A DNA stretch of 64,000 bases from an uncultured Gammaproteobacteria bacterium (GTDB taxonomy: Bacteria > Cyanobacteriota > Vampirovibrionia > LMEP-6097): NCBI GenBank assembly GCA_964551135.1, contig CAZKAT010000001.1:148224-212223 (forward strand). The letters are read 5' to 3'. Made by a program: the position numbers and the translations under genes. Numbering within the stretch: position 1 is the stretch's first letter; the number at the start of each line of letters is the position of its first letter. Of the stretch, positions 13,979-22,738 are shown piece by piece. Below the pieces are notes generated by a model, which saw only the letters and a list, made by a program, of their open reading frames with translations, did no database searches and was not told the origin of the DNA.

Positions 13979-14848
13979 ATGCTCAGCTTCCAGCAAATCA
14001 TTTTTACATTAAATAAATTCTGGTCAGATCAAGGCTGTATTATTATGCAACCTTATGATACTGAGAAAGGTGCAAGTACCATGAATCCTGCAACTTTCTT
14101 GCGTGTGCTCGATAATAAACCTTGGAAGATGGCTTGTATAGAACCTTGTCGTCGTCCTACAGATGGAAGATATGGAGAGAATCCTAATCGCTTGCAACAT
14201 TATTTCCAGTATCAAGTGATTCTTCAGCCGAACCCACTTAATTCACAAGATCTTTATTTAGATAGTTTACGTGCCTTGGGTATTAAACCTTTGGAGCATG
14301 ATATTCGTTTCGTTGAGGATAATTGGGAGAGTCCTACTCTTGGAGCTTGGGGCTGTGGTTGGGAAGTATGGTTGAATGGTATGGAGATTACTCAGTTCAC
14401 TTATTTCCAGCAAGCAGGTGGTATAGAGATCAAGCCTGTAGCAGTAGAGCTTACTTATGGTTTAGAGCGCATTGCTATGTATCTGCAAGAAGTAGATTCA
14501 GTATTTGATTTGGTTTGGCATGAACATAAGGGTGAAGTAGTTAAATATGCTGATGTTTATAAACGTAATGAATTTGAACAGAGTAAGTATAATTTTGAAC
14601 TTAGTACAGCAGAAAGACTTCTAGAACTATATAAGAATTATTTTCAAGAAGCCCAAGTTTGTTTAGATGCAGGACTCTCAATCCCTGCTTATGATTATGT
14701 ACTTAAATGCTCGCACACTTTTAATTTACTAGATGCCAGAGGTGCTATTAGTAAAGATGAAAGACAGAAATTTATTCTTGAAATTAGATCACTAGCAGAG
14801 AGAGTGGCTAGAATCCATGTAGAAAGCAATAAAACCGTTTCAGTATAG
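13979..14848 (+). CDS. glyQ: Glycine-tRNA ligase alpha subunit
   Basis: [48 protein letters not shown]. Confidence 0.96.
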
Positions 14849-14975
14849 GTTGATTGTCTCGTATATCTTGAGGTTTACGTGGACCAAAGAAGAACATTAA
14901 ATAAAAACCTACTGCCAATAAGATGCCTAATACAACTAGAGCTTTAAATGTTTCATTTTCTATGAATGCTTCCAT
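14808..14975 (-). CDS. Small single-TM protein (55 aa), absent from the ORF track
   Basis: My translation: [37 protein letters not shown]...; AGAGGA SD upstream; overlaps the end of ORF 14953-15201 and 41 nt of glyQ. Confidence 0.4.
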
Positions 14976-15201
14976 TAATCCTCTCCTCTTCGTCTAATAA
15001 AACATTATAACTTACATCAATCAAATAGTTAGCAATTGCTAAGAATACTAAAGCTGCTACTAGTCTGATCAAGAAGGCCTTATTAAAAGTGAATTCCATT
15101 AGATAAATATTCATAAGAAATGCTCCACTAAATGCAGCGCAAGCATAACCTAAGCTTCTGTAAACTTCTGCTCTATGAATTTCAGATTTTCGATAATCCA
15201 T
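14953..15201 (-). CDS. Small two-TM hypothetical protein
   Basis: 82-aa ORF with two hydrophobic helices. Confidence 0.55.
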   Translation of the reverse strand: MDYRKSEIHRAEVYRSLGYACAAFSGAFLMNIYLMEFTFNKAFLIRLVAALVFLAIANYLIDVSYNVLLDEEERINGSIHRK

Positions 15202-15232
15202 AATGATGAAAATTTTTATAAATCCTATTCAC

Positions 15233-15353
15233 AAATGAAAGGGGTCAAAAGTCACCTGAAATTTTTTGGATTTGTTTGTAAAGACAAAGGTTTTGAAAAA
15301 CTGACTTTAATAACGAGTGGCTCAAGGGGGTCAAAAGTCCTTTCTAGGTTAAG
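15233..15353. repeat. Paired-GGGGTCAAAA element, copy A
   Basis: AAATGAAAGGGGTCAAAA...TCAAGGGGGTCAAAA...GGTTAAG, also found at 39094-39228. Confidence 0.8.
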
Positions 15354-15396
15354 GATTCCATTGCCAGAAACCTGAATTGGTATTACATTTATATAG

Positions 15397-17217
15397 GTGC
15401 TTAATTTAATTAATAACAAAAACAAGAAATCACAAGTTCAGTTAGTTTCTGAATATGATTTTTATTCCTTTACTGAGTCAGTTCATTATCATGCTCATAA
15501 ACTTTTAGGTGTAACGGAGAAGATTATTAATAGAGAGCGCGGTATTTTATTTACGCTTTGGGCTCCTCGGGCTAAAGCTGTAAGTGTTGTAGGAGATTTT
15601 AATAACTGGCGTATCAATGCTAATCCAATGCAACGAGCTACAACTAAGCAGGATAATGCAACTAAGGGCTATATCAATGCTGTGGGTGATGGTCTCTGGA
15701 CTTTATGGCTTGTGAATCTCAAACCAGATCTGGCTTATCAGTTTGCTATTCATTTAGATGATACTAAGATTGAGTATATTAATGATCCTTTTGCTAAACA
15801 ATTACAGTTTGTATCTAGTGGGAATGTTTATTCTTCACAACCAAAAAGATTAGCTTCGATATTTAATTATAGTGAATATTCATGGTCTGATCAGGATTGG
15901 ATTAAGAGGCGTGAAGCTGATGAGCTTTCCATTAAGCCCATATCAATATTAGATTTTGATTTTTCTAGTAAGCAAACCTCCTTGGAGACTTATCAGGGTT
16001 TAGCAAAATCTATAGTCAAACAAGCTCAGGATGGAAGTTTCACTCATGTTTCATTCAGCTCTTTAATTGAAGAAATTATAGATTTAACAGATTCCATTAA
16101 TAATATTATTAAAGACTATTATTATTTCGCTGCTAAGTCTATTCATGGTGATCCTCAAGACCTCAAATGTTTAGTAGATTATTTACATGCTAATAATATT
16201 GGAATAGTTTTAGAGTTACCATTCTTTGATAAAAGAATCGACTATAATCGCAAAACTAGTACTAATATTTTGCTGTCTAGTGCCATATATTGGCTAGAAG
16301 AATTTCATATTGATGGTTTGAAATTTACTACTAGAGCGAATGACGCCAGCAAAGTTATTAGTTATAAAAATGATGATGTGATTGATTTTATTAAAGTATT
16401 GAATGAATCAATTCATTCTAGATCTAAAGGCGTGATTACTATTGTTGATGATGATAGTGGTATGCCAGGTATTTCTAAGCCTACATATTTAGCTGGTTTA
16501 GGTTTCAATATGAGTATTTCTAATAGTTTTATAAGCAGTCTCAATTCATTTGTTGAGCAAGATTCAATAGATACTCTTAGTTCTTCGTATAGTTTTGCAG
16601 AGAATCAAATTCTTAATTTTAAAGATCCTACTTTATCTAAGCTTGATATTAATTCCTTGAAAATATTCTTCGCTTATTTTTTTACTTATCCAGGTAAAAA
16701 AATAATTAATGCTGAATTACTGGATAATATTATTTTCTTAGCTCAAACACCTAATAATTTCTTAGAAGAATTCTTTTTTAGCAGCCCATGTAAGTTTTTA
16801 GGGCTTGATTTAACTAATGATGCGATTGATCTGATATCTTATATCCGTGATTTAAATGATATGTATGCTGAAGAAGAAGCTCTTTCGGGGACTGATTTTA
16901 AGGATACTTGCTTTGAATGGGTAGATTATGCTAACCAAGACCTGATAAGCTATTTACGTTGGTCAAGAGATTATAAGGATGTGATCTTAGTGGTGATTAA
17001 TTTAAGTAATAAGAATATCAATCATTGTTCTATAGGTGTGCCTAAGCCTGGTTTATATTTGCAAATTTTTAATAGTGATGCTATTCAATATTGCGGTTCT
17101 GGTTATGGCAATGATGATGGTTTATATAGTTCTCATATTCAAGCACATAACAGACCTTATAGCTTAGTGATGGATATCGCTGCAAGGTCAATTGCTATGT
17201 TTAAATTAAATGAATAA
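15397..17217 (+). CDS. GlgB-like (CBM48 + GH13) protein with degenerate catalytic motifs
   Basis: FTLWAPRAKAVSVVGDFNNW and FEWVD/FNSDA C-domain are present; RVDAV, AEEST and HDE are replaced. Confidence 0.8.
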   Translation: MLNLINNKNKKSQVQLVSEYDFYSFTESVHYHAHKLLGVTEKIINRERGILFTLWAPRAKAVSVVGDFNNWRINANPMQRATTKQDNATKGYINAVGDGLWTLWLVNLKPDLAYQFAIHLDDTKIEYINDPFAKQLQFVSSGNVYSSQPKRLASIFNYSEYSWSDQDWIKRREADELSIKPISILDFDFSSKQTSLETYQGLAKSIVKQAQDGSFTHVSFSSLIEEIIDLTDSINNIIKDYYYFAAKSIHGDPQDLKCLVDYLHANNIGIVLELPFFDKRIDYNRKTSTNILLSSAIYWLEEFHIDGLKFTTRANDASKVISYKNDDVIDFIKVLNESIHSRSKGVITIVDDDSGMPGISKPTYLAGLGFNMSISNSFISSLNSFVEQDSIDTLSSSYSFAENQILNFKDPTLSKLDINSLKIFFAYFFTYPGKKIINAELLDNIIFLAQTPNNFLEEFFFSSPCKFLGLDLTNDAIDLISYIRDLNDMYAEEEALSGTDFKDTCFEWVDYANQDLISYLRWSRDYKDVILVVINLSNKNINHCSIGVPKPGLYLQIFNSDAIQYCGSGYGNDDGLYSSHIQAHNRPYSLVMDIAARSIAMFKLNE

Positions 17218-19444
17218 CAATTCAAAAATCCTTCACTATTCGTTACTTTCGCTAATTATGATTATTGGTGTTGTTACACTAACTGCTTTACTAAGTGTGA
17301 GATCTTGGTATAAACCTAGTATTAAGCTCAACGAACCTAGTCCAGTAACAATTATTCTGGATAAAGATGTAGAAGTAATAGATAGAATTGCAACTAATGA
17401 AGCTAAAGAAAAAGCTCGTTTAACTGCTCTTCGATACGCTGGTGATAAGGATATACTCGAAGTAGACCAGACGGCAATGAAAACTAATATGGATAATCTA
17501 AAATTCATAGTTCACTTTGTCAGAGATGAAATTAGTTTTAGTAAGCCCTATCCAGATCCAATTAATCCTAAAGTTAGCTTAGAGACTCAGCTTTATCTAG
17601 TTAATATTGATGATGCCAAGTTTAATCAAGTAATTTTAAGTACTAATTTATCTGAATTGATTGATGATCCTAATAAGGTAATAGAGATTTATGCTTTAAC
17701 AGAGATAGAGAAGAAGTTATTTTTTAAAACCTTAGCTGAAGAACGTGAAAAGAAGAAAAAAATTGAAGAAGAGAAAGCTGCGTTAGGTAAGCCATTCTTT
17801 GAAACTATTAAACGTGTAAATTATGAAAGTCTTTTTGTGAAAACTTTTGCAATACAAAAAAAATTGTTAGATTTGGGTTATGTAAGAGGACTCTCAAGAG
17901 CCAAAATTCATGAAAATATTAAAATCTTATATCCAGGATTAAGCTATGTGGAGCTGAGTTTGATTGAGAAATTAATAGATAGATCTACTTTCCCTAATAT
18001 GGAAATAGATTGGAAGAAACTAAGGGATATTGAGAAAGAGGCTATGAATGCTGTTCCGCCAGTGATGATTCAGCTTAAACAGGGGTCTTTGATAGCATCA
18101 AAGGGTAGGACTGTAGATTTAGAGAGTTTCTATTATTTGAGTGATTTAGACATGTTGAATGCAGAGACAGATCAGAATGAAATCTCTAATAATTTTGTAC
18201 TGATTACTTGTGCAGTTTTACTTATAGTATTGTTTAATCTTATTACTAAGTTCAGAAATTATTCTATTCAGCAAGTAATAATGATGTTCCTTATACCTAT
18301 TGCAGCATCTGCGATTATTGCACCAATTGCGATTTGGGGTGTTAACAAATTGCCACTAGTGCCACTTGCAGCAGTTTCCATATTGATGACAATATTTTAT
18401 TCCCCAAGCATGGCAGCGATTGTAATTCTATTAATGAGTTTCTTTATGGCTAAAACAGTTGACATGAATTTTTGGCAAGTATTGCCACAGTTTATTGGTT
18501 CTATGTATGCAATATTTCTTGTCAGGAAAGTGCATCAGCGAGAGGATCTTACTAATGCAGGTACGCAGATTGCTATAGTACAAGTGGTCGTTTTTCTGTT
18601 GACAGTGATGCTTGCAGTGGAAGATTTTGAGGTGACTACAGTTCTGATTATTGCTTGTTTCTATGCTATTAGTGCTGTCGCTTCGGGATTTATTTCACTT
18701 GCTGCATTACCTTACTTTGAATCAGGACTTAAGTTATTGACCCCATTTAAGCTAGCAGAGCTTGCTAATCCTAATCAACCTTTACTGAAGAAGCTTAAAG
18801 AAATGGCTCCAGGGACTTACGCTCATTCTATGAGTGTTTCTAGATTATCCGAAGAAGCTGGAGCTGTGTTAGGACTTAATACTGATCTGATTCGTGTGGG
18901 ACTACTTTATCATGATGTGGGCAAGATTTATGCTCCTGATTATTTTATTGAAAATACTCTCGGTAAACCCAATCCCCATACCACTCTTGATGATCCCAAA
19001 AAATCAGCTGAAATAATTCTGGGTCATATACCTGAGGGTATTAAACTTGCTAGGAAATATAATTTACCGCAAGAGATTGCTGATTTTATTCCAATGCATC
19101 AAGGTACTACTATTACGAATTACTTTTATTATATTGCAGTGGAGAAATATGGTAAGAAAAACGTTGATCCTGAAGACTATCGTTATCCTGGTCCTAGACC
19201 TAATACTAAGGAGACTGGAGTTGCTATGCTTGCTGATAGTACTGAAGCTGCATTGAGAAGTATTAAGGATATAGCTGATGAGAAACAGGCTAGTGAAATG
19301 ATTTATAAAATTATTAATGCAAGGATCGATGAAGGTGAGCTTTCTAATACCGGGCTTACTAGGTCTGATCTGGATAAAGTTGCTAATTCCTTCTTGAATA
19401 TTTGGCGTTCACAGAATCATGAAAGAGTTAAGTATCCTAGCTAG
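17210..19444 (+). CDS. 7TM-HD phosphohydrolase (PgpH-like cyclic-di-AMP phosphodiesterase family)
   Basis: N-terminal TM, large extracytoplasmic domain, about 7 TM, APGTYAHS, YHDVGK, YPGPRP, LADS.EAA. Confidence 0.85.
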   Translation: MNNNSKILHYSLLSLIMIIGVVTLTALLSVRSWYKPSIKLNEPSPVTIILDKDVEVIDRIATNEAKEKARLTALRYAGDKDILEVDQTAMKTNMDNLKFIVHFVRDEISFSKPYPDPINPKVSLETQLYLVNIDDAKFNQVILSTNLSELIDDPNKVIEIYALTEIEKKLFFKTLAEEREKKKKIEEEKAALGKPFFETIKRVNYESLFVKTFAIQKKLLDLGYVRGLSRAKIHENIKILYPGLSYVELSLIEKLIDRSTFPNMEIDWKKLRDIEKEAMNAVPPVMIQLKQGSLIASKGRTVDLESFYYLSDLDMLNAETDQNEISNNFVLITCAVLLIVLFNLITKFRNYSIQQVIMMFLIPIAASAIIAPIAIWGVNKLPLVPLAAVSILMTIFYSPSMAAIVILLMSFFMAKTVDMNFWQVLPQFIGSMYAIFLVRKVHQREDLTNAGTQIAIVQVVVFLLTVMLAVEDFEVTTVLIIACFYAISAVASGFISLAALPYFESGLKLLTPFKLAELANPNQPLLKKLKEMAPGTYAHSMSVSRLSEEAGAVLGLNTDLIRVGLLYHDVGKIYAPDYFIENTLGKPNPHTTLDDPKKSAEIILGHIPEGIKLARKYNLPQEIADFIPMHQGTTITNYFYYIAVEKYGKKNVDPEDYRYPGPRPNTKETGVAMLADSTEAALRSIKDIADEKQASEMIYKIINARIDEGELSNTGLTRSDLDKVANSFLNIWRSQNHERVKYPS

Positions 19445-19447
19445 GTA

Positions 19448-19577
19448 TGCTATTATTATGTCCAGACCTCTTTCGAAACCGTAGGTTTCGGATTAGAGGT
19501 CTGATAAAAAGATAGCGACCGTGCGGGACGCACGTGTCGCCCTAAGAGAATTCTTAGGTTTCAAAGGGAATATTATT
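19448..19577 (+). promoter_or_regulatory. Extended -10 promoter and structured ~115-nt leader of glmS
   Basis: TGC-TATTAT at 19448-19456, followed by three consecutive hairpins before GTG 19578. Confidence 0.5.
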
Positions 19578-21506
19578 GTGTGTGGAATTATTGCTTACAT
19601 AGGTAATAAAAATGCTAAAGATATACTAATTCACGGACTCAGGTCACTAGAGTATCGTGGTTATGATTCTGCTGGTATTGCCTTGCTTTCTGATAGCACT
19701 ATTGAGATAGTTAAGTCTCAGGGTAAGATCAGTAATTTAGAAGAGAAGATTATAGCTGCAAGTAAGCAAACTGCTATAGCTTCTAATATCGATAGGGAAA
19801 ATCCATCCAGTAAATTTAGTTCTTTAGTTAATGAAAGATTAGCTAAAGCTATCGACACTAGTTCTTGTGGTATCGGGCATACACGCTGGGCTACTCATGG
19901 AGTGCCTAATGATATCAATGCTCATCCGCATCAAGATTCAAGTCTAAGTATTGCTCTAGTGCATAACGGCATTATTAAAAACTACCTTAGTCTTAAACAA
20001 GAATTAGAAGCAGAGGGTGTGGAGTTTAGATCTGACACAGATACGGAAGTGATTGCACAGCTTTTTGCAAAGAATAGAAATAACAGTGAAAATGATTTAA
20101 GTGCTTTAAGGAAAACCATCACTAGGCTTGATGGTAGTTATGCTCTAGCAATTCTTATTAGTAATGAGCGTAAGATTCTTGTTGCTAAAAACCAGTCACC
20201 ATTAGTGATTGGTGTTGCTAATGGCGAGAACTATATAGCAAGTGATAGTAGTACGGTTTTACAATATACTGACAAGATACTTAAACTACAGGATATGCAA
20301 GTTGCAGAAGTGACAGCGACTGATATTAAGATAGAAAATGCTAATGGTACTCAAGCCAAGATAGAAATTCATCAATCTGTACAGTCAGCATCGATACTTG
20401 AGAAAGGACCTTATAAGCATTTTTTACTTAAGGAGATCAATGAACAGCCTGCGGTAACTAGTCTAATGTTAGATCAATGTATCCATGATCTGACTAAGCC
20501 TATTACTGGTTTTGAGAATTTGGATATTAATTTTAAAACTATCGATAGAATACTCTTCACTGCTTGCGGTTCTGCTTACCATGCAGCTTTACTGGGTAAG
20601 ACTCTAATAGAGTTATGGGCTAAGATTCCCGTAGAAGTTACTATCGCAAGCGAATTTTGTACTATGCCAGCATTAGTGACTGGTAAAGATCTAGTGATAG
20701 GTATTAGTCAATCAGGTGAGACTGCTGATACTCTTGCTGCAATCAAAAATGCTAAGGCAGCGGGTGCTAAGGTTATGGCTATCACTAATAAGGTTGATTC
20801 TGCTATTTATGATTTATGCAAGCCTAATAATTATGTAACTCCTGCCGGGATAGAGGTGTCTGTAGCTTCTACTAAAGCATTTACTTCACAAGTTTTAGCA
20901 TTATACCTGCTAGCAATTAAGATTGCGGAAGATAAGCTAGGAGCAGATTTGAGTCATGCTAAGCGTGAATTGAGATCTTTGCCATTAATTATTGATCAAG
21001 TGATAGAGCGAGCAGATACTTATCATAAGCAATTCTTGAAATATTCTAATTACAGAGACTTCTTGTTTCTGAGTAGAGGAGTGAATTATCCTATAGCCTT
21101 AGAAGGTGCACTTAAGCTTAAGGAGCTTAGTTATATTCATGCTACTGGTTATCCTAGTGGTGAGATGAAACATGGTCCTATAGCCATACTTGATCAGAAC
21201 GTTCCGGTCTTAAGCATTGCTATTAATGGCGAGACTGAGTTAGAACAAATTGTTTATAAGAAGACCCTAAGTAATGCGGAAGAAGCTAGGGCACGTATGT
21301 CACCTTCTATAGTGATAGCTTGTGATGATAATAATGATGTGTCAGGAGTATTTGATGAAGTAATCCGCATTCCTAATATCAGTCAGCTTTATAGCCCTAT
21401 CATAGCCACCGTTCCATTACAGTTCCTTGCATACTATATTGCTGAAGATTTAGGTAAGGATGTTGATCAGCCACGCAATTTAGCGAAGTCAGTAACGGTG
21501 GAATAG
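19578..21506 (+). CDS. glmS: Glutamine-fructose-6-phosphate aminotransferase; start reassigned to GTG 19578
   Basis: MCGII N-terminal nucleophile, LEYRGYDSAG, GHTRWATHG, SQSGETADT, PRNLAKSVTVE. Confidence 0.96.
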   Translation: MCGIIAYIGNKNAKDILIHGLRSLEYRGYDSAGIALLSDSTIEIVKSQGKISNLEEKIIAASKQTAIASNIDRENPSSKFSSLVNERLAKAIDTSSCGIGHTRWATHGVPNDINAHPHQDSSLSIALVHNGIIKNYLSLKQELEAEGVEFRSDTDTEVIAQLFAKNRNNSENDLSALRKTITRLDGSYALAILISNERKILVAKNQSPLVIGVANGENYIASDSSTVLQYTDKILKLQDMQVAEVTATDIKIENANGTQAKIEIHQSVQSASILEKGPYKHFLLKEINEQPAVTSLMLDQCIHDLTKPITGFENLDINFKTIDRILFTACGSAYHAALLGKTLIELWAKIPVEVTIASEFCTMPALVTGKDLVIGISQSGETADTLAAIKNAKAAGAKVMAITNKVDSAIYDLCKPNNYVTPAGIEVSVASTKAFTSQVLALYLLAIKIAEDKLGADLSHAKRELRSLPLIIDQVIERADTYHKQFLKYSNYRDFLFLSRGVNYPIALEGALKLKELSYIHATGYPSGEMKHGPIAILDQNVPVLSIAINGETELEQIVYKKTLSNAEEARARMSPSIVIACDDNNDVSGVFDEVIRIPNISQLYSPIIATVPLQFLAYYIAEDLGKDVDQPRNLAKSVTVE

Positions 21507-21539
21507 ACTATCTAATTGTTCAACAAGTAATCAATAAAT

Positions 21540-21583
21540 CGTCATCCTGACGTCGCCTACTTCGTAGGCTCCTCAGGATGACG
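21540..21583. repeat. Short palindromic element, internally deleted relative of 58089-58197
   Basis: CGTCATCCTGA/TCAGGATGACG perfect 11-bp IR with inner GCCTAC-TTC-GTAGGC. Confidence 0.75.
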
Positions 21584-21709
21584 TTGTGACTTAGGTTGAC
21601 GCTTATACTATGGATGATAAGGTTTACTCTTTAACTAAACCATAATTAATCAAGTTTATCCTCCATATGACCGATACAAGTATTATAGGTCTGGGAGGGT
21701 CTTGTTGGG

Positions 21710-22738
21710 ATGAGTAAGGGTCAGGGGATCATAGTTCTATGCTTGCTGATATTAAGCATTAGTGCGGCTAATGCTTTAGTAGAACTGCCTAAAGGCTGGA
21801 TTAGAGCTAAATCTAATCCAGATTATGCTTTCTTGGAGAATAGTTATTCACTAGGAGAGGATAGCTATAAGACACTCAGTCTTATGGATCTTAAATTATA
21901 TGAGCAAGGAGAATACGACAAGGCTGTTGTTGATTTAGTAGACTCTTCTGTAATTAGTTCTGTTAGTCCTACATATGATGTCTCTCCAGATGCTAGTTCA
22001 GTAGTCTTTCAAGTGATAGCAAGAGCTGGTGGTGGCTTGCTTGATTCCGTTATATTTATGCATATCCCTGAGTCTAAAAAGATTAAAGATCTAGTTCTCA
22101 ATAATATTTTTACTGATGGTATTTCTAAGAAAACCGAAAATGAAATTTATAAACTGACTAATATTCAATTTAAGGAAGAGAAAAATACTGATCTAGTGGT
22201 ACTAAGTTACCAAAATGCAAATGATCGTGTTGATGTCTCTTATGATAGCTTGGCTGCTTGTGCAGTGAATTTGGGTAATGATTTAATTGCCAAGGTTAAA
22301 TCATATTATGGTGGTAAATTACCTGCTAATGCCCAAGTAAACTATGGGACTGCTGAGCTTGATAACTATGATCAAGAGTTGACTGTTAATTATGCTGCTC
22401 TTGGAATCAAGCATCGTTTCCTCTTTGATCAAGAGTTGAACTTAGTTGCTTTTCAAGAAGAAAATTTAAGTGGCCTAGTGCAAAATTTCACTAAATATTT
22501 TAAATATGGATCTTTAGTAAGCGCAGAGACTTATAACAATAATGGCAATAAAGTTTTTAGTACATCTTCATTAGATAACTATGCTTATAGTGCTGGTGAT
22601 ATCGCATATTTTTCTTATGCTAAAGAAGCATTTAAATTGATGTATGATGAGAATCTTTTCCGCATTAATCACAGTTATAAAGGCAATCTTAAAGCCTCAG
22701 TCGGTGATATGGAAGCAAGAACAAGGTTTTTAAACTAA
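21710..22738 (+). CDS. Hypothetical exported protein
   Basis: Signal peptide; 342-aa ORF. Confidence 0.6.
   Translation: MSKGQGIIVLCLLILSISAANALVELPKGWIRAKSNPDYAFLENSYSLGEDSYKTLSLMDLKLYEQGEYDKAVVDLVDSSVISSVSPTYDVSPDASSVVFQVIARAGGGLLDSVIFMHIPESKKIKDLVLNNIFTDGISKKTENEIYKLTNIQFKEEKNTDLVVLSYQNANDRVDVSYDSLAACAVNLGNDLIAKVKSYYGGKLPANAQVNYGTAELDNYDQELTVNYAALGIKHRFLFDQELNLVAFQEENLSGLVQNFTKYFKYGSLVSAETYNNNGNKVFSTSSLDNYAYSAGDIAYFSYAKEAFKLMYDENLFRINHSYKGNLKASVGDMEARTRFLN

Follow-up and report, generated by a model that had tools for sequence, protein, structure and literature searches.

A branching-enzyme homologue lacking the catalytic machinery, retained in one family of Vampirovibrionia

In plants, pseudoenzymes descended from glucan-active enzymes (ISA2, BAM4/9) have a well-established regulatory role, but to our knowledge bacterial examples have scarcely been reported, and a full-text literature search found no paper on a bacterial pseudoenzyme derived from a branching enzyme. 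The protein considered here, designated pGlgB, is a homologue of the glycogen branching enzyme GlgB that lacks the catalytic machinery, and it is encoded at positions 15397–17217 of a 64,000-nucleotide stretch of DNA (the whole stretch is referred to as the window, and coordinates are positions within it unless a contig is named). The closest described counterpart is plant ISA2 (PMC12510319), like pGlgB a CBM48-bearing protein of glycoside hydrolase family 13 (GH13) whose catalytic residues are lost and which selection has kept for a non-catalytic role. The two differ in parentage, with ISA2 derived from a debranching and pGlgB from a branching enzyme, and also in company: ISA2 pairs with its active GH13 paralogue ISA1 in an isoamylase complex, whereas the pGlgB genome contains no other GH13 protein, and any partner of pGlgB would have to come from another family. 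A second described system connects branching enzyme with cyclic di-adenosine monophosphate (c-di-AMP). In Synechocystis the PII-like c-di-AMP receptor SbtB contacts GlgB (Selim et al. 2021, PMC8654305); the GlgB contacted there is active, whereas at this locus a dead GlgB adjoins the gene of a putative c-di-AMP phosphodiesterase, pgpH, and does so in a single genus.

It is nearly certain that pGlgB is catalytically dead and kept by selection. The gene is transcribed rightwards (+ strand), starts with GTG and encodes 606 amino acids. Pfam finds only CBM_48 and Alpha-amylase_C in the product, and the catalytic domain PF00128 has no match in it at E≤0.1. The CBM48 domain occupies residues 36–137 (15502–15807; CBM_48 E = 1.4e-11 over residues 47–133), a degenerate (β/α)8 barrel occupies residues 181–500 (15937–16896), and a C-terminal all-β domain occupies residues 501–606 (16897–17217; Alpha-amylase_C E = 1e-13 over residues 508–604). 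pGlgB falls below the cut-offs of both GlgB equivalog models (NF003811, 262 bits against a cut-off of 741; TIGR01515, 219 against 464). It shares with canonical GH13_9 GlgB (EC 2.4.1.18) the succession of CBM48, barrel and C-domain and the common motifs WLEEFHIDG, GLGFN and PGKK; unlike canonical GlgB, it has no catalytic triad or conserved regions I–IV, and three active-site loops are deleted.

Catalytic columns were read from alignments with solved GlgBs, canonical homologues and the E. coli K-12 enzyme (from NC_000913). In region I (DWVPGHF) E. coli D335 corresponds to E273 of pGlgB, and W336–H340 are deleted together with about 30 further residues. The segment R403-V-D405, containing the nucleophile D405, reads K309-F-T311 in pGlgB (T311 codon, 16327–16329), and 13 residues past barrel strand 4 of the E. 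coli enzyme are deleted. The acid/base residue E458 (AEEST) is replaced by D351 (VDDDS), and the segment SH525D526EVVHGK, which includes the transition-state aspartate D526, is deleted or replaced. A preliminary description of this locus had read ELPFFDK, KFTTR, VDDDS and FKDP as replacements of the catalytic motifs, and alignment to E. coli GlgB and other canonical enzymes puts all four in the right places; it had also recognized the CBM48 and C-terminal GlgB domains, in agreement with the Pfam matches.

The losses extend across the whole pGlgB clade. The loops bearing H340, W336 and H525/D526 are deleted in every member, the donor-site tryptophan loops, both active-site histidines and an active-site arginine are replaced or deleted, and the column of E. 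coli Y300 contains isoleucine, valine or a gap. The nucleophile column holds T, S, K, A, E or P and the acid/base column D, E, Q, K or N; because both vary freely, these columns are no longer constrained. In total, some 110 positions with at least 95% invariance among 48 canonical GlgBs have been lost in the clade. pGlgB is best read as the descendant of a GH13_9 branching enzyme in which catalysis disappeared long ago.

The gene has nevertheless been kept as a gene. Among three genomes of the window's genus the ratio of nonsynonymous to synonymous substitution rates (dN/dS) is 0.11–0.13 at dS of ~0.8–1.0, far from 1, and all domains are constrained (per-domain range 0.03–0.26), with values of 0.03 for the N-terminus, 0.13–0.18 for CBM48, 0.09–0.15 for the barrel and 0.09 for the C-domain. 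The reading frame is intact and stop-free in eight genera at 35–82% identity. These values, together with the clade-wide loss of every catalytic residue, uphold the earlier suggestion that the 606-amino-acid frame is a retained pseudoenzyme scaffold and not a pseudogene. An AlphaFold2 model (predicted template-modelling score 0.73), for which 13 members of the family were used, contains a CBM48 β-sandwich, eight predicted barrel strands with the catalytic loops deleted, and a C-terminal sandwich, and its top Foldseek matches are exclusively branching-enzyme structures (TM 0.56–0.60). Thirty sites are near-invariant within the clade and differ from the canonical residue (e.g. D188 where canonical GlgBs have the invariant H249, and C505 in place of G625), a pattern that indicates new or compensatory constraints on the sequence.

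The source genome is a metagenome-assembled genome (MAG) of 2.25 Mb and 92% completeness, and its nearest relatives are deposited as Melainabacteria, part of them mislabelled Gammaproteobacteria. The window's family comprises 30 genomes in 13 genera (g1–g13, with g1 the genus of the window), and pGlgB is present in 15 of these genomes and 8 of the genera. A word-indexed search recovers 14 close clusters, all without the catalytic domain, and an exhaustive profile search of 1.84 billion representatives recovers ~12 pGlgB clusters at 50% identity that score 368–933 bits. Canonical GlgBs score at most 340 bits in the profile search, leaving a gap to the pGlgB clusters, and the catalytic motifs are missing in all family representatives inspected. 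The clade is monophyletic with support of 100/100 and lies on a long stem (1.22 changes per site) outside all sampled canonical GlgBs; this tree fits either vertical descent or transfer as the origin of pGlgB. Of 251 genomes of the class, 72 have a canonical GlgB above the cut-off, none of them in the window's family, and the pGlgB family is confined to this one family of Vampirovibrionia (Melainabacteria).

Vampirovibrionia are not alone in having dead GlgBs. P0132, a 737-amino-acid GlgB from another organism, retains the N domain and has degenerate regions MTLNLYDF, RIKDV, ADGAD and TTELLYDSHK; like pGlgB it is a full-length GlgB look-alike with a replaced nucleophile and a kept frame, and it represents an unrelated, independent dead branching enzyme. 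Among dead GlgBs the pGlgB family is distinguished by having lost all four conserved regions along with the loops, by lying outside the glycogen cluster, and by its independent origin in Vampirovibrionia. Divergent GH13 proteins of other Vampirovibrionia (the second copy in G041, and G029) were considered as relatives of pGlgB and shown to be unrelated. Two further proteins, P0129 and P0130, considered as informative fusions, are really tandem GlgBs of ~1200 amino acids from other organisms; each joins an N-terminal GlgB_N-CBM48-barrel copy with degenerate motifs to a complete and apparently active C-terminal GlgB.

The source genome contains no PF00128 match at all, and the search for a canonical glgB elsewhere, proposed in the preliminary description, finds none and leaves pGlgB as the only GH13 protein. 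E. coli GlgA, GlgX and the GlgP N-terminus likewise have no tblastn match in the genome. Hidden Markov model searches, however, reveal a non-canonical glycogen cluster on contig C2 at 76–86 kb (locus L090), which encodes a GDE-type (glycogen-debranching enzyme) protein above the TIGR01561 cut-off, a GT4/GT5 glycosyltransferase, a GH57 protein of 402 amino acids with an α-amylase-type signature, and a fusion of 1257 amino acids (C2:81833–85603; L090:9834–13607) that joins a GT3 glycogen synthase (PF05693), DUF3417 and a GT35 α-glucan phosphorylase (TIGR02094, 732 bits). The GT3 part of the fusion is of eukaryote type, and one polypeptide thus combines synthesis with phosphorolysis; the fusion occurs in 10 of the 13 family genera at 49–95% identity and always adjoins the GH57 gene. 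By sequence the genome is without a recognizable branching enzyme, yet has the debranching enzyme.

The GH57 protein was considered as a substitute branching enzyme. It is the sole GH57 in the genome and keeps both catalytic residues, and it has a non-aromatic residue opening conserved sequence region 3 (CSR-3), a threonine at logo position 23 and a terminal YY. These three marks are those of GH57 α-amylases, not of branching enzymes (PMC6037648), and the candidate was set aside because its signature residues fit the α-amylase group. The protein has no relative by sequence in the PDB and no NCBIfam match at E≤1e-5. Genus g7 has an extra GH57 of 850 amino acids adjoining a second GH13-like gene (G058:C4:52953–56049; G141:C6:3517–6577) that is not seen in the other family genera, and the two could possibly form an alternative glucan enzyme pair.

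Placed on a tree of ArgS, the distribution of pGlgB requires only one or two gain or loss events. All seven genera of clade B with the glycogen cluster (g1, g2, g3, g7, g11, g12 and g13) also have pGlgB, and g9 and g10, on that side of the tree the one sub-lineage to have lost the entire cluster, lack pGlgB too. This phyletic pattern suggests, without being conclusive, that pGlgB is tied to glucan metabolism.

Two putative glucan-binding positions are also retained. Twelve surface glucan sites have been mapped on E. coli GlgB, and mutation of sites I, IV, VI and VII lowers its activity (PMC10254366). W71 in the CBM48 domain of pGlgB aligns with E. coli W159 (site IV) and does not vary in any dead or canonical sequence, and W508 in the C-domain aligns with W628 (site VI) and is kept except in P0014, which has phenylalanine. 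The N-terminus is hydrophilic and by eye has no signal peptide, so pGlgB is expected to be cytoplasmic. The reading that best accommodates these features, and which taken as a whole is considered moderately probable, is that pGlgB is a non-catalytic, glucan-binding helper or organizer of storage glucan. An ancestral GH13_9 branching enzyme lost catalysis and has since been maintained by purifying selection in no fewer than eight genera of a single family; the resulting cytoplasmic protein, which keeps the CBM48, the barrel scaffold, the C-domain and two widely conserved surface sites, would bind α-glucan non-enzymatically and would serve the GT4/5 transferase, the GH57 protein, the GT3-GT35 fusion and the GDE, for instance as a granule organizer or helper subunit. 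The specific proposition that pGlgB binds glucan and serves glycogen metabolism stands at roughly even chances.

Several observations weigh against this role. Three genera in clade A of the ArgS tree (g4, g5 and g6) have the glycogen cluster and lack pGlgB, while g8, represented by one 89%-complete MAG in the other clade, has pGlgB and lacks the cluster. The pGlgB gene is never inside or beside the glycogen cluster. pGlgB has lost the donor-groove tryptophan of the E. coli enzyme and those of its surface sites I, II, III and V. pGlgB evolves two to four times faster than its neighbouring genes, whose dN/dS in the same three genomes is 0.03–0.09; the structural model has a mean pLDDT (predicted local distance difference test score) of 69, a moderate confidence; and the metagenome matches to the locus described below are to DNA metagenomes only.

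Some of these points are shared by the alternative that the fold has been kept for a job unrelated to glucan, such as a protein-protein scaffold. The GH13-like proteins 4F2hc and rBAT serve membrane transporters, and pGlgB might by analogy have been turned to a comparable use: the 30 residues that are nearly invariant in this clade alone suggest new constraints, the majority of the canonical glucan sites have been lost, the gene stands apart from the glycogen cluster and in g8 exists without it, and its conserved neighbours, glyQ and ubiD, are unrelated to glycogen. However, the CBM48 with its key tryptophan has been kept (as has the site-VI tryptophan outside P0014), pGlgB has been lost along with the glycogen cluster in g9 and g10, and synteny points to no partner. 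A non-glucan role is accordingly regarded as unlikely, though it fares better than the alternatives that follow.

The gene downstream of pGlgB (17210–19444, + strand) encodes a 7TMR-HD phosphodiesterase of the PgpH type with 744 amino acids, consisting of an extracellular domain (17324–18160), a seven-transmembrane (7TM) region (18200–18742) and an HD domain (18764–19438). The corresponding families 7TMR-HDED (PF07697), 7TM-7TMR_HD (PF07698) and HD (PF01966) all match above the Pfam cut-offs, and the protein fits the three-part architecture described for PgpH (PMC5575661). Its HD domain matches that of Listeria monocytogenes Lmo1466/PgpH (4S1B) at E = 6.6e-48. With the same architecture and a matching HD domain, the protein resembles Listeria PgpH, and c-di-AMP hydrolysis is its putative activity. 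The H, HD, HH, H and D motif residues of this domain are presumably metal ligands; the downstream protein keeps H, HD, H and D, and its HH pair reads HQ. QHHGT of Lmo1466 corresponds to MHQGT (MHQG at 19043–19054, residues 612–615), with the second histidine replaced by glutamine, in all eight family orthologues examined.

The end of pGlgB and the start of pgpH overlap by 8 nt (17210–17217, ATGAATAA), and pgpH is followed by glmS (19578–21506, + strand; NCBIfam glmS, 705–712 bits). The preliminary description had reported this overlap with a 7TM-HD protein of the PgpH family and the glmS gene beyond it, and the sequence, the Pfam matches and the 4S1B match agree. The same 8-nt overlap is present in the sister loci L004 and L005. 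The locus, including the junction, is also found with 0–2 differences in metagenome contigs of two independent studies (drinking water, 2022; freshwater, 2018): a 6.7-kb contig spans 15300–19500 with two differences, and a 611-nt contig of an independent run crosses the 8-nt overlap with none. Because it is recovered in independent metagenomes, the locus is not an assembly artefact.

Adjacency of pGlgB and pgpH is restricted to the three genomes of the window's genus (G000, G081 and G101), one of the eight genera with pGlgB; in the other seven (g2, g3, g7, g8, g11, g12 and g13) the two genes are on separate contigs. Elsewhere each gene has its own company. The most widely kept upstream neighbour of pGlgB is glyQ (L004, L005, L006, L008 and L009), and ubiD follows pGlgB in loci L006–L009 (35–49% identity). 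A divergent miaA precedes pgpH in all seven other genera examined (g2–g4 and g6–g9), and glmS follows pgpH in 4 of the 10 genera examined for pgpH context (g1, g2, g3 and g9). Gene order thus identifies glyQ-pGlgB-ubiD and miaA<>pgpH-glmS as the older contexts, and the g1 arrangement results from the joining of glyQ-pGlgB to pgpH-glmS. The juxtaposition stems from a genus-specific rearrangement and is not a conserved partnership. Since the head-to-tail overlap arose in g1, the two genes are probably co-transcribed and translationally coupled there, as judged from their layout. The cdaA-cdaR-glmM linkage is well known in Firmicutes, and the position of pgpH beside glmS, which encodes the first enzyme of uridine diphosphate N-acetylglucosamine (UDP-GlcNAc) synthesis, recalls it.

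The preliminary description proposed pGlgB and PgpH, translationally coupled, as a candidate link between glycogen or maltodextrin status and second-messenger turnover, to be given up if their adjacency were not conserved; the order is not kept beyond the window's genus, and PgpH is present in all 30 family genomes, including the 15 without pGlgB, so that coupling does not hold as a conserved feature. What can still be asked is whether, within the window's genus, pGlgB acts as a sensor of glucan status that binds PgpH at its cytoplasmic HD domain and adjusts the hydrolysis of c-di-AMP, with the overlap giving stoichiometric co-synthesis. The overlap is real, present in all three g1 genomes and in independent metagenomes; the genome encodes c-di-AMP synthesis by a CdaA-type cyclase, with its DAC domain (PF02457) at G000:C1:395792–396145, and this domain is present in 27 of the 30 family genomes; and PgpH is closely related to the characterized Lmo1466. 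There is also precedent in Synechocystis, of a sister lineage, where c-di-AMP acts on glycogen via SbtB and GlgB (PMC8654305); this published cyanobacterial link also means that a connection between c-di-AMP and glycogen is not undescribed, as had been supposed. Against a sensor of this kind stand the adjacency in one genus of eight, the presence of PgpH in twice as many genomes as pGlgB, the ancestral context of pgpH between miaA and glmS, and the loss of catalysis and conservation of pGlgB long before the two genes met, and the proposal is considered very unlikely. The related idea that g1 has recruited pGlgB as a glucan-sensing PgpH partner, a pseudoenzyme counterpart of the cyanobacterial SbtB-GlgB-c-di-AMP axis, has a slim chance; if true, glycogen status would feed directly into c-di-AMP turnover.

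The chance is similarly slim that pGlgB has no function and is slowly decaying, a relic whose frame in g1 stays open only since translation of pgpH depends on it. Its rate of evolution relative to its neighbours, the long stem and long internal branches of its tree and its absence from 5 of the 13 genera are what such decay would produce; but the stop-free frames in eight genera and the low dN/dS with constraint on each domain do not fit it, the gene is kept in seven genera where pgpH lies elsewhere, and one or two events on the ArgS tree explain the absences. Least probable of all is that pGlgB remains an enzyme whose active site has been remodelled, with altered chemistry, and might supply branching or another glucan transfer: a genome with a GDE and no recognizable branching enzyme, an acidic cluster (D351-D352-D353) at the old acid/base site in the window's genus and the clade-specific invariant D188 in place of H249 speak for it, but with the nucleophile and acid/base columns free to vary, the transition-state column and the H340, W336 and H525/D526 loops deleted in all members, and no alternative invariant carboxylate pair evident, it is considered very unlikely.

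Upstream of pGlgB in the window, glyQ (glycyl-tRNA synthetase α subunit) is at 13979–14848 on the + strand (Pfam tRNA-synt_2e, E = 6.7e-141), and the list of open reading frames (ORFs) includes a small leftwards-transcribed ORF of 82 amino acids at 14953–15201 (− strand), divergent from pGlgB, predicted to encode a two-helix membrane protein. This ORF is found only in the window's genus (54–84% identity in the sister loci L004 and L005, dN/dS ~0.15) and has no Pfam family match. The divergent intergenic region contains a two-box GGGGTCAAAAGTC module (15233–15353, with boxes at 15241 and 15327), which is likewise found only in the window's genus and has identical box spacing in L004 and L005. 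A consensus scan locates promoter-like hexamers TTGCCA-17-TACATT (15361–15389, + strand) that stop 7 nt short of the start codon of pGlgB and are kept in L004 and L005, although matches in the promoter and terminator scan of the region are no commoner than in shuffled sequence. The arrangement suggests a module-driven, nearly leaderless pGlgB-pgpH transcript.

The glmS gene is preceded by a 133-nt leader (19445–19577) with two strong hairpins, CAGACCTCT...AGAGGTCTG and GCGAC...GTCGC. An Rfam scan of 14800–21800 gives no match at E≤0.1, and the leader is therefore neither a known glmS ribozyme nor another known leader. The true start of glmS is the GTG at 19578 (GTG-TGT), which yields an M-C-G-I N-terminus; an M-C N-terminus is obligatory for GlmS.

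Among dead branching-enzyme homologues pGlgB stands out by its complete catalytic loss, its family-level age and its position as the sole GH13 protein in a genome without a recognizable branching enzyme. It raises the question of which α-glucan these non-photosynthetic relatives of Cyanobacteria store, and what job a branching-enzyme scaffold has once it is unable to branch. That the storage glucan of this lineage has few branches or none, with no branching enzyme at work, and that pGlgB is an organizer bound to its granules, is likelier than a partnership with PgpH.

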